Shown here piece after piece: positions 20,644 through 23,648 of a DNA stretch of 64,000 bases. Where the stretch lies: contig JBIOJK010000003.1 of assembly GCA_044450765.1 (NCBI GenBank), positions 19,856 through 83,855 of the forward strand. Direction: 5' to 3'. How positions within the stretch are numbered: the first letter of the stretch is position 1; each line of letters begins with the position of its first letter. This stretch comes from Myxococcota bacterium (lineage in GTDB: Bacteria > Myxococcota_A > UBA9160 > SZUA-336). The notes beneath the pieces were generated by a model that made no database searches, had not been told where the DNA came from, and saw nothing but the letters and a program-made list of their open reading frames with translations. Position numbers and translations under genes: made by a program.

Positions 20644-20768
20644 GGGGAGCTGCCTCGCGAGCCTGGCTCGCCGGTGGGCGTGTATGAAAGCACCAGGTCC
20701 CGGGAGTGTCAACGCTGCGGGCGCGCAGATCGCGGGTGAACGCTCGCGGAAAAGTTCGCGTCTCGTTC

Positions 20769-20796
20769 TTGCATTGCTGCGCGCCGCTTTGATAAG
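20769..20796 (+). promoter_or_regulatory. Candidate dnaA promoter (TTGCAT, N16, GATAAG)
   Basis: Only sigma70-like pair found in the rpmH/dnaA divergent spacer; about 50 nt upstream of the dnaA ATG. Confidence 0.25.
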
Positions 20797-20845
20797 CAAC
20801 TCTCATCCCACTCGTTCGCGCCTCGCGAAAGGTCCGACTCCCCCG

Positions 20846-22165
20846 ATGACTGCGAAGATGACTGAGCTCGTCCGCCCGGACGAGGCCGCTTCCCTTTGGA
20901 AGTCGGTGCTGCAGACGCCCTCGCCGAGGATTGGCGCCGCGACGAGAGACTCGCTCGCGGAGAGCACGCGCTGCCTCGAGCGCACGGGGTCGGAGCTCCG
21001 CGTCGCGATCGACTCGGCGCAGCTCGACGCCGGGCTGCGCGGCGGCCAGCTGGCGGTGCTCGAGGTGTCGCTCGCGAATCTCACCGACGGTGCGACGGCG
21101 CTCGCTCTCGTGCCCGTCGAGGATCTCGGATCGAAGCGCGGCGACCCGAGCTACACGCTCGCGACCTTCGTCGCGAGCCCGGCGAACGCGAAGGCGCGCG
21201 CGAAAGCGGCGGCGTTCGCGCGAGACGCGCCGGCGTCGGGTGGCGCGCTGGCACTCCACGGCGGCGCGAGCTCGGGCAAGACGCACCTGCTCCGAGCGAT
21301 CGCCAGCGCGCTCGGCGATGCGCGCGGCGTCGAGCGCGTGCTCTGCTGCAGCGCAGAGCAGCTGTGTCAGGAGCTGATCCGCGCGATCTGGGCTGACTCC
21401 GTCGACGAGTTTCGCGAGCGCATCGGCTCCGTCGACGCGCTGGTCGTCGACGATCTCGACGAGCTCGTGGGCCGCGACGCGACCCAGGAGGAGCTCGCGC
21501 TGGCGCTCGAGACGCTCGGCGCGCGGGGTGTTCCGATCGCGATCTCGCTCTCGAAGCCGATCGAGCGCACCTCGGGAATGGTCGCCTCGCTGCGCGGTCA
21601 GCTCGCCCGCTTCGCGGAGCTCGAAGTGCGCGCGCCCGAGTGGGAGACCCGGGTCGCGATCGTGCTCGCGCACGCGCGGCGCTGGCGCGTCGAGCCGAGC
21701 GCCGCCGTCGCGTCGTTCATCGCGAGTCGGCTGCGCGCGCACCTCGGCCGGCTCGACGTCCTGCTGACTCGCCTGATGACGCGCTCGTCGGCCGCGGCGA
21801 GCGCGCTCGCCGATCTCGACGTGGTCAAGCACCTGCTCACGGGCGCGGGCGAAAAGCCGCTCGCGACCTCGCCCGACGACGTTCTGACCGCCGTCACGCG
21901 CCAGTTCAACCTGCGCGTCCGCGAGCTGCGCTCGTCGAGCCGCAGCGCGCGAGTGACTACGCCGCGCCAGGTCGCGATGTACCTGATGCGACGCCACTGC
22001 GGGCTCTCGTATCCGGAGATCGGCCGCCGCTTTGCGCGCCACCACACGACCGCGCTCCACGCGGACCGCATCGTGCAGGCGCAGCTGTCCGAGAACGCGA
22101 GTCTCCGCGCGGCCGTCGTGCTGATCGAGAAGGATCTTCTGCGGCTCTCCGAGGGCGGTGGATGA
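20846..22165 (+). CDS. dnaA: Chromosomal replication initiator DnaA
   Basis: AAA+ Walker A (GGASSGKTHLL) and a C-terminal DnaA-box-binding domain (MYLMRRHCGLSYPEIGRRF..HTTAL). Start set to an ATG at 20846. Confidence 0.9.
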   Translation: MTAKMTELVRPDEAASLWKSVLQTPSPRIGAATRDSLAESTRCLERTGSELRVAIDSAQLDAGLRGGQLAVLEVSLANLTDGATALALVPVEDLGSKRGDPSYTLATFVASPANAKARAKAAAFARDAPASGGALALHGGASSGKTHLLRAIASALGDARGVERVLCCSAEQLCQELIRAIWADSVDEFRERIGSVDALVVDDLDELVGRDATQEELALALETLGARGVPIAISLSKPIERTSGMVASLRGQLARFAELEVRAPEWETRVAIVLAHARRWRVEPSAAVASFIASRLRAHLGRLDVLLTRLMTRSSAAASALADLDVVKHLLTGAGEKPLATSPDDVLTAVTRQFNLRVRELRSSSRSARVTTPRQVAMYLMRRHCGLSYPEIGRRFARHHTTALHADRIVQAQLSENASLRAAVVLIEKDLLRLSEGGG

Positions 22166-22358
22166 GCGGTGGAAAACAGCAGCTCGCTCGCCGCCCACCG
22201 CGCGCGTCCACCGCAGAGCCACCTGCTGCGTCGCAGCGGCGTGAGGAAAATCTCCTGCGCGGCTGCTCCCGCACGCGGATTTTCCAGATTTCCACAGGGC
22301 TCTCTCCTACTCCTGCATTTCATGTCATAAGATCAGGAGCAGAGGGGCGGAGGTTGCT
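22155..22358. promoter_or_regulatory. Candidate oriC core: a DnaA-box cluster plus an AT-rich DNA-unwinding-element-like stretch in the dnaA-dnaN spacer
   Basis: TCATCCACC (rc), TTTTCCACC (rc), TTTTCCAGA and ATTTCCACAGG, then the AT-rich run tcctgcatttcatgtcataagatcagga. Confidence 0.5.
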
Positions 22359-23462
22359 ATGAAGCTCAGCATCGAACGCGAAGAGCTGTTGCGCGGACTC
22401 GGCCGCGTGCAGGCGATCGTCGAGCGAAAAGGGACGATGCCGATCCTGGCGAACGTCCTGATCGAAGCGCGCGACGACGGTCTGACCCTGGCGGCGACGG
22501 ATCTCGAAGTCGCCGTCGTCGCGCGTCACCCCGCGAAGGTGAAGATCGCGGGCTCGGTCACGCTCGGCGCGAAGAAGCTGTACGAGATCGCGCGCGAGCT
22601 CGAGCACCCCGAGGTCTCGCTGGTCGCCGACGACGCGCGAGTCACTCTGACCTGCGGTCCGGCGAAGTTCAATCTCTTGTCGACGTCGCCGGAGGAGTAT
22701 CCGAGCGTTCCGAGCGCGGAGAGCACGACCTTCGCCCAGCTCGACACCGGCCTCGTCGCGGAGCTGATCGACCACACGCTGTACGCCACGTCGAGCGACG
22801 AGACCCGCTACAACCTGAACGGCGTCTTCATCGAGAGCGCCGACGGGAAGCGCGTGCGCTTCGTCGCCACCGACGGCTACCGGATCTCGCTCATCGAGCG
22901 CGCGGTGCCCAACCCGGTGGGCTTCCTGGCGAAGGGCATCATCGTGCCGCGCAAGGGCATCGCCGAGATCCGCAAGCTGTGCGACGAGGCGGACGGCTCG
23001 CTCGAGATCGGCGCCGCCGATGGATTTCTCCACGTGCGCCGGCCCGATCTGTTGCTCACCACGCGGCTGATCGACGGCGAGTTTCCCAACTACCGGCAGA
23101 TACTCCCCAAGAGCCACCGCGTTCGGCTGCTGGTGGAGCGCGAAAAGCTGCTGCACGCGGTGCGGCGCATCGCGCTCATGGCGCACGAGCGGTCGCGCGG
23201 GTTCCGCTTCGTGCTGGCCGACGGACAGCTCGACCTCTCGGCCAGCAACCCCGACCTGGGCGAGGCGCGCGAGCTGCTCCCGGTGGAGTATCAGGGCGAG
23301 CGCTTCGAGACCGCATTCAACGCGCGGTATCTGCTCGACGTGCTCGGTGCGATGACCGCGAAGGAAGTCGCCATCGAGCTCTCCGAGGAGCTCAGCCCGG
23401 CGCAAATCAGGCCTGCGGACGACGCCGATGAGAGCGCCGTCATCATGCCGATGCGGCTGTAG
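22359..23462 (+). CDS. dnaN: DNA polymerase III beta sliding clamp
   Basis: 367 aa with a DnaN three-domain sequence; GGAGG RBS. Confidence 0.95.
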   Translation: MKLSIEREELLRGLGRVQAIVERKGTMPILANVLIEARDDGLTLAATDLEVAVVARHPAKVKIAGSVTLGAKKLYEIARELEHPEVSLVADDARVTLTCGPAKFNLLSTSPEEYPSVPSAESTTFAQLDTGLVAELIDHTLYATSSDETRYNLNGVFIESADGKRVRFVATDGYRISLIERAVPNPVGFLAKGIIVPRKGIAEIRKLCDEADGSLEIGAADGFLHVRRPDLLLTTRLIDGEFPNYRQILPKSHRVRLLVEREKLLHAVRRIALMAHERSRGFRFVLADGQLDLSASNPDLGEARELLPVEYQGERFETAFNARYLLDVLGAMTAKEVAIELSEELSPAQIRPADDADESAVIMPMRL

Positions 23463-23648
23463 CCGAACGCGCTCGATTCAGCTAGTTTACCGAGCGTTTG
23501 CAGCACCTTGCGTCGCGAGGGACCCCCTGCATTCCACAGGGTCTCGAGCACCGGTGTCCATCGCCGGGTCCCGCGCACAGGGCTTCGGTCCTCCCCCATC
23601 CGCGACGGCTTCTCAAACGCGCCAGGTCCCAGGGGTTTTGAAACACGA

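Follow-up and report, generated by a model that had tools for sequence, protein, structure and literature searches.

A predicted box-trio unwinding module in the dnaA-dnaN spacer as the probable replication origin of an uncultured Myxococcota lineage

We analyzed a 64-kb stretch of DNA (the window; G+C ~70%) from an uncultured Myxococcota bacterium, whose DnaA protein is 100% identical to one recorded as 'DnaA ATPase domain-containing protein [Myxococcota bacterium]'. All genes identified from ~7.0 to 20.6 kb are on the minus strand (a sulfatase, atpG/A/F, parB, parA, gidB, jag, yidC, rnpA, and rpmH), and all those identified from 20.8 to 34.6 kb are on the plus strand (dnaA, dnaN, gyrB, gyrA, an aminotransferase, atpB, tmk, pnuC, a NadR-like gene, and DUF429). 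Gene orientation diverges at 20.7 kb, inside the classic origin neighborhood of parAB, gidB, jag, yidC, rnpA, and rpmH on one side and dnaA, dnaN, gyrB, and gyrA on the other. An earlier inspection of the letters by themselves (the sequence-only reading) had described almost exclusively minus-strand genes left of ~20.7 kb and plus-strand genes from dnaA to nadR, and this description is borne out for the identified genes across ~7.0-34.6 kb. Within this locus, the spacer between dnaA and dnaN, at 22157-22336, is probably the chromosomal replication origin, or at least its unwinding module.

For comparison, we searched one-genome-per-species contigs with an alignment of DnaA relatives and obtained 18 related loci (L001-L018) from Myxococcota or "delta-proteobacterial" metagenome-assembled genomes (MAGs). 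Together with the window, these make up the 19 genomes referred to below, in which DnaA identity to the window ranges from 75% down to 37%. dnaA lies directly upstream of dnaN in all 18 loci, and rpmH lies upstream of dnaA in 15, i.e., in all of those whose contigs extend far enough. The order rnpA-rpmH / dnaA-dnaN-gyrB-gyrA is retained wherever the contig is long enough, and so is the minus-strand block jag-yidC-rnpA-rpmH, of which rpmH is the final gene. The dnaA-dnaN spacer is 178-196 bp long across the related loci and 193 bp (22166-22358) in the window, and an alignment of all 19 spacers revealed conserved islands within otherwise poorly conserved sequence.

Some of these islands are DnaA boxes. 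At up to two mismatches to TTATCCACA, five matches lie at 22157-22296, inside 140 bp (Table 1). The sequence-only reading had counted at least four boxes in this spacer, missing box 0 over the dnaA stop codon, and had overlooked the local box consensus, TTTTCCACA. This consensus, at up to one mismatch, has four matches in the entire 64 kb, all of them within 22168-22296; a set of 300 dinucleotide-preserving shuffles yielded 1.3 TTTTCCACA-type sites per window on average and at most two within 200 bp. The box cluster is real and did not arise by chance. Because the TTTTCCACA consensus had been read off the site itself, we built a position matrix solely from the corresponding sites of the 18 related genomes. 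Its consensus was again TTTTCCACA, and its ranks 1-4 over both strands of the window were the same four sites. Clade-wide, TTWTCCACA at up to one mismatch was found 27 times in the 19 dnaA-dnaN spacers, once in 15 rpmH-dnaA spacers, and not at all in 17 dnaN-gyrB spacers.

Each box is conserved in its own manner. Box 0 persists in 13 of the 19 genomes as GGTGGA plus TGA, TAG, or TAA, which reads TCATCCACC, CTATCCACC, or TTATCCACC on the minus strand. GGT and GGA are rare here (8.8% and 10.9% of Gly codons, respectively), and the box appears to be held in place by these two rare codons plus any of the three stops. At box 1, GGTGGA(A/G/T)AAC is conserved in most relatives and forms the island GGTGGAAAAC right after the dnaA stop. 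The position of box 2, an island in the middle of the spacer, is occupied in relatives by GGTGGAGAAAA or TGTGGAAAAAA, which are TTCTCCACC or TTTTCCACA on the opposite strand. Boxes 3 and 4 together make up the conserved island GTTTTCCAGATTTCCAC, in which the CC at 22284-22285 is invariant (19/19 genomes), T22281 is present in 18/19, and the 8-bp offset between the two box cores is kept in relatives. These two boxes are also the best matrix hits in the window, with box 4 at rank 1 and box 3 at rank 2.

Downstream of the paired boxes, GGGC right after box 4 and a non-conforming triplet, TCT, lead to four repeats that read CTC CTA CTC CTG on the plus strand. Column by column, the information content of these repeats in the 19 genomes is 1.7/1.5/0.7, 2.0/1.4/0.6, 2.0/1.7/0.5, and 1.7/1.7/0.3 bits, i.e., C and T are near-invariant (1.4-2.0 bits) and the third base is variable (0.3-0.7 bits). 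We take this CTN pattern to be the signature of DnaA-trios (3'-GAN-5'), an element that the sequence-only reading had missed. More distant relatives show CTACTACTACTACT at the trio site (L010). The dnaA stop and the first trio are separated by 138 nt in 13 of the 19 genomes and by 139-140 nt in five more, although hardly any of the sequence between them is conserved. Such a pattern, in which spacers of constant length but variable sequence lie between conserved blocks, is familiar from enterobacterial oriC.

The trios run into a stretch of low duplex stability. As judged by nearest-neighbor stability, 22307-22336 is the second least stable 30-mer of 63,971 window positions (z = 3.76), and 22317-22336 is the second least stable 20-mer in the 64 kb (z = 3.77). 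The AT-rich patch reported previously is therefore real at 22307-22336, but its given limits, 22310-22345, span 36 nt rather than 28. The only 30-mer in the window with still lower stability, ATGGTAAATCCTGTGATATTTCAGACAGTT, is at 4068-4097 in the gap between two divergent genes (2993-4054, minus strand; 4180-4827, plus strand); it has no DnaA box at up to one mismatch and is presumably a promoter region.

Boxes, trios, and a low-stability segment are the parts of the basal unwinding system (BUS) that was defined in Bacillus subtilis and is also described for Helicobacter pylori. Its published search rule asks for a box with up to two mismatches, an optional second tandem box (co-oriented, up to four mismatches, and fused or up to 3 bp apart), a gap of up to 16 bp, and at least three 3'-NAN-5' trios (PMC8287927). 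In the window, TTTTCCAGA (box 3) and ATTTCCACA (box 4) lie 15 and 7 nt before the trios, and each has two mismatches to TTATCCACA. The two form a fused, co-oriented tandem pair, the four consecutive trios follow downstream on the strand opposite the box consensus, and the low-stability element at 22307-22336 overlaps and follows them. A scan of the window under this rule, on both strands and with at least four repeats required within 16 bp of a box of up to two mismatches, gave boxes 3/4 plus 22304-22315 as the sole match; this uniqueness holds for CTN repeats with either box consensus and for NTN repeats with the E. coli consensus. The site also lies where an oriC is generally sought, in the rpmH-dnaA-dnaN-gyrB neighborhood with divergent gene orientation. 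The spacer appears to hold a complete module of boxes, trios, and DNA unwinding element, conserved in 19 genomes across a range of DnaA identity that reaches down to 37%. This module, together with the clade-wide box counts of 27 against 1, favors the dnaA-dnaN spacer over the rpmH-dnaA spacer as the oriC candidate, as the sequence-only reading had proposed. An origin of the BUS type with five predicted boxes and four predicted trios is well supported; it would be of a known kind and call for no new mechanism.

Table 1. Predicted origin elements and neighboring features (window coordinates)
Feature	Position	Strand	Sequence, description, or basis
DnaA box 0	22157-22165	-	TCATCCACC; last two dnaA codons GGT-GGA plus stop codon
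DnaA box 1	22168-22176	-	TTTTCCACC; 2 bp from box 0, same orientation
DnaA box 2	22242-22250	-	TTTTCCTCA; degenerate in the window genome
DnaA box 3	22280-22288	+	TTTTCCAGA; upstream member of a fused co-oriented pair facing the trios
DnaA box 4	22288-22296	+	ATTTCCACA; one base (22288) in common with box 3
G+C-rich gap	22297-22303		GGGCTCT; between proximal box and trios; G22297 in 17/19 genomes
Four predicted DnaA-trios	22304-22315	- (3'-GAN-5')	CTC CTA CTC CTG (plus-strand reading); 19-genome alignment
Putative DNA unwinding element	22316-22336		AT-rich low-stability stretch; contains conserved TAAGATCAG
dnaN Shine-Dalgarno	22349-22353	+	GGAGG
rpmH-dnaA spacer	20644-20845		Two conserved blocks (15 related spacers), variable middle
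rpmH-side block	20680-20714		TTGACA on the minus strand at 20707-20712; conservation
dnaA-side block	20769-20774, 20790-20796		TTGCAT and TGATAAG, respectively; conservation
Second TTCCACAGGG copy	23532-23541	+	Upstream of gyrB, inside palindrome
jag	17253-18242	-	Family scan
yidC	18256-19914	-	Family scan
rnpA	20118-20480	-	Family scan
rpmH (ribosomal protein L34)	20494-20643	-	TIGR01030, 77 bits (cutoff 37.65)
dnaA	20846-22165	+	NCBI start 20858, 435 aa
dnaN (sliding clamp)	22359-23462	+	TIGR00663, 297.8 bits (cutoff 137.65)
gyrB	23649-26084	+	Family scan
gyrA	26095-28578	+	Family scan

Published origins share much of this layout. A study of H. pylori notes that the boxes closest to the unwinding site "fused or overlap" both there and in B. 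subtilis, and that a GC-rich stretch of 4-5 bp comes before 5'-CTA-3' repeats in which the T is strictly conserved (PMC8235120). The trio consensus is 3'-GAT-5', of which the dinucleotide 3'-GA-5' is seen captured by cryo-EM (PMC10721633), and the trio of the Clostridioides difficile dnaA-dnaN region is 5'-CACCTACTACTATTACTACTATGA-3' (PMC7561715). The likeness to B. subtilis incC (DnaA-boxes #6/#7) takes in the dnaA-dnaN location, two co-oriented abutting boxes, a short GC-rich gap, 3'-GAT/GAN-5' trios opposite the box-consensus strand, an AT-rich segment, and extra upstream boxes in either orientation. The three leftward boxes 0-2 resemble the distal boxes of incC, which function in either orientation, with helical phasing (PMC6669920). 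Unlike in B. subtilis, the box consensus here is TTTTCCACA, G is the usual last base of the upstream box (TTTTCCAGA), most trios are CTC/CTA/CTG and not CTA/CTT, and the 'AT-rich' element is only ~70% A+T over 20 nt, in a genome of ~70% G+C.

Other systems match in part. H. pylori oriC2 (ts1/ts2) has fused or overlapping boxes, a GC-rich stretch, CTA-type trios, and an AT-rich region (PMC8235120), but it belongs to a bipartite origin on both sides of dnaA, and its box consensus is of the TCATTCACN type. In Sorangium cellulosum, a high-G+C member of the same phylum, oriC is predicted directly upstream of dnaN and the typical GC-skew inversion is absent; there, in contrast to the window, dnaN is apart from dnaA, the box is TTATCCCCC, the region measures 629 bp, and no trios are described (PMC2650636). 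Cyanobacterial oriC shares its box variant with the window, but the phylum is unrelated and cyanobacterial dnaA is usually not beside dnaN; the common variant is presumably convergent.

On the basis of these parallels, we suggest the following sequence of events. Domain IV of DnaA would bind the fused co-oriented boxes 3/4, and the leftward boxes 0, 1, and 2, at their fixed upstream distances, would recruit more DnaA and probably loop to the proximal complex. From the box 3/4 platform, a DnaA oligomer would grow over the short GC-rich gap onto the minus strand and capture the four 3'-GAN-5' trios. The adjacent AT-rich element would then be stretched and opened, which would allow helicase loading followed by bidirectional replication. 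DnaA binding at the predicted boxes, the start of unwinding at this site, and its role as the sole origin of the replicon are what we infer from this arrangement. The assignment would give an uncultured Myxococcota lineage a precise, testable origin, with five boxes, four trios, and an unwinding element within ~180 bp, that can serve as an anchor for assigning replichores and for estimating growth rates of these MAGs from peak-to-trough read coverage. It would also add to the evidence for the box-trio unwinding module as an ancestral and widespread feature, persisting even where the initiator has drifted enough to lose its database name.

Several points weigh against this assignment. First, a 193-bp origin whose boxes mostly carry one mismatch is small. 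Second, the first conserved trio begins 7 nt past box 4 with a degenerate TCT before it, as compared with the published 4-5 bp. Third, the 19 genomes are related to one another and the conservation counts are not independent; support for the origin consists of sequence and comparative evidence from an organism that is uncultured. Fourth, the window has no parS-like 16-mer at up to three mismatches to either of two consensus forms (TGTTTCACGTGAAACA and TGTTCCACGTGGAACA), despite the nearby parAB, and parS was dropped as an independent origin marker. The parB and parA genes themselves lie at 14974-16678, 4-6 kb from dnaA.

Fifth, GC skew within the window has no minimum at 22 kb, and the plus-strand skew moves, if anything, from slightly positive to negative. 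Inside the window the skew tracks gene orientation, since third codon positions on coding strands are rich in C: GC3 skew shows this for nearly every gene, and the means for putative leading- and lagging-strand genes are -0.070 and -0.032 (P = 0.2). The skew is uninformative rather than negative. We dropped GC and GC3 skew as origin markers inside the window, as they track the coding strand and reveal no leading/lagging difference, and an inference from GC skew such as the sequence-only reading had envisaged finds no support there. As the Sorangium report also illustrates, GC skew can fail to locate oriC in the Myxococcota phylum.

The last point against the assignment concerns the initiator. 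The window DnaA combines an AAA+ domain that bears Walker A and B motifs with a DnaA-type helix-turn-helix domain at its C terminus (Bac_DnaA PF00308, 81.5 bits; Bac_DnaA_C PF08299, 78.9 bits; both over their cutoffs), and its gene occupies the orthologous position between rpmH and dnaN. The Walker A GxxxSGKTH and Walker B DD are conserved in 32 family members, and the protein keeps the counterparts of B. subtilis Ile190, Ile193, Arg202, and Glu228 (trio-base capture), with Lys222 as Arg and Glu223 as Asp. The TIGR00362 equivalog score, at 210.9 bits, is below the cutoff of 343.9, with a match that covers profile positions 102-436 only, a divergence that the sequence-only reading had overlooked. 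The canonical box VII arginine finger (E. coli R285, B. subtilis R264) is required for unwinding by every homolog tested (PMC8287927). Its column, which we placed by an indel-free stretch of 33 residues between conserved anchors, is Q252 in the window DnaA and Q, R, A, V, or L across the 32 family members; R250, two residues upstream, is near-invariant in the family. In the DNA-reading helix, HHTT replaces DHTT, as it also does in some canonical acidobacterial DnaAs.

Sequence identities to the closest and more distant loci show that DnaA in this clade diverges much faster than DnaN and GyrB (74%, 94%, and 93%, respectively, for L001; 37%, 63%, and 69% for L015). These oddities do not undermine the origin assignment; what they put at issue is how the oligomer holds together. 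It is unlikely that an atypical initiator, its finger truly lost or moved to R250, serves an otherwise textbook origin of the BUS type in this clade. If it were true, DnaA oligomerization on the trios would differ from that of all studied homologs and might be ATP-independent or use a shifted finger, and the conserved G at box position 8 (TTTTCCAGA) might reflect altered base recognition.

We next weigh other explanations of the same elements. The origin could be bipartite, as in Bacillus and Helicobacter, with the rpmH-dnaA spacer as a required second DnaA-binding sub-region and the dnaA-dnaN spacer as the unwinding half. B. subtilis and C. difficile, which use both spacers, have this gene order as well (PMC7561715, PMC6669920), and a few relatives have good boxes in the middle of the rpmH-dnaA spacer, e.g., L012 (ATTTCCACA) and L002 (TGTGGAT). 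In the window, however, this spacer has no DnaA box better than two mismatches, in agreement with the weak boxes that the sequence-only reading had seen there, and the 15 related spacers (3.1 kb) contain one box at up to one mismatch and none at a conserved position. No box cluster corresponding to Bacillus incA/B was found upstream of dnaA. What is conserved in the spacer are two blocks that look like the divergent promoters of rpmH and dnaA, although a sigma-70 scan under a strict rule called no promoter in the rpmH-dnaA spacer. We consider a bipartite origin unlikely. Downstream of the dnaA promoter-like block, at 20804-20814, closer relatives conserve CATCCCACTCG, a possible autoregulatory site that looks like a DnaA box with a single additional C.

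Regulation of dnaA and dnaN is a common function of DnaA boxes. The boxes described here might accordingly serve transcriptional control of dnaN or the dnaA operon, with the true origin elsewhere on the replicon. Consistent with such a role, TAAGATCAG, ~25 nt upstream of the dnaN ribosome-binding site, might function as a -10 element, the spacer is not marked by GC skew, and dnaA and the predicted oriC are apart in Sorangium (PMC2650636). A repressor model, on the other hand, needs neither phased 3'-GAN-5' trios at a fixed distance nor an adjoining low-stability segment, no sigma-70-like promoter was found in the region, and the layout agrees element by element with the published unwinding module. 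Control sites without an origin are, in our judgment, improbable.

A three-base periodicity with a free third position also marks coding sequence, and for this reason we considered a small open reading frame (ORF) at 22169-22330 (53 aa, with Leu-Leu-Leu-Leu at the repeats), along with a conserved RNA structure in the dnaN leader; both are very improbable and were rejected. In 13 of the 19 genomes, no stop interrupts this frame between the end of dnaA and a TAA located 24 nt beyond the repeats, and a GTG start is present in 11, but the frame is broken or startless in four or five relatives (L001, L010, L014, and L017 lack an upstream start or have a stop just before the repeats), and the peptides it would encode show no relation to one another. 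Upstream of the repeats, the three codon positions are conserved about equally (0.69, 0.71, and 0.68 bits), and the periodicity is therefore confined to the 12-nt trio block. As for RNA, CTCCTG (22310-22315) is complementary to CAGGAG (22334-22339), as in an anti-Shine-Dalgarno hairpin, but RNAalifold found 0 conserved pairs, folding of the single sequence gave nothing better than shuffled controls (z = +0.81), and relatives with CTACTACTA repeats show no complementarity to their own ribosome-binding sites. No Rfam family reached threshold; a match to AsdA (25.6 bits versus 52) is similarity to the dnaA coding sequence.

The sequence-only reading had also proposed box clusters on both sides of dnaN and a 13-mer, TTCCACAGGG(C/T)CTC, recurring at 22290-22302 and 23532-23545. 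On the gyrB side we found one weak, shallowly conserved site, and no box at up to one mismatch in 17 related spacers. The 13-mer fits the gyrB copy only, the copy at 22290 needing a 1-nt indel; what the two places share exactly is the 10-mer TTCCACAGGG, at 22290 and 23532. We estimate that ~0.15 such 10-mers would be common to two spacers of ~190 bp by chance. The TCCAC core, the only part of the 22290 copy conserved in relatives, is conserved because it is the core of box 4. The gyrB-side copy ranks below the 30 best matrix hits, and only the five closest relatives conserve it and the palindrome around it, CCCTG-CATTCCA-CAGGG (CCCTG-N7-CAGGG, 23525-23541). We rejected the 13-mer as a shared regulatory element and treat the recurrence of TTCCACAGGG as a common box core plus coincidence; judged by sequence, the gyrB-side copy is a weak DnaA-box-like site at best and probably does not belong to the origin. 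In more distant relatives, the equivalent of 23525-23541 holds another hairpin-like sequence. A generic repeat search of 13-24 kb returned low-complexity GC-rich noise only.

The deepest-conserved element of the dnaN-gyrB spacer is a 32-nt block, GCTAGTTTACCGAGCGTTTGCAGCACCTTGCG, just past the dnaN stop at 23481-23512. It is conserved in all 17 related dnaN-gyrB spacers and may be the gyrB promoter or a regulatory site. Finally, the ATP-synthase genes are split by the dnaA region, with those for the b, alpha, and gamma subunits at 10425-14573 on the minus strand and that for the a subunit, atpB, at 30174-31145 on the plus strand.

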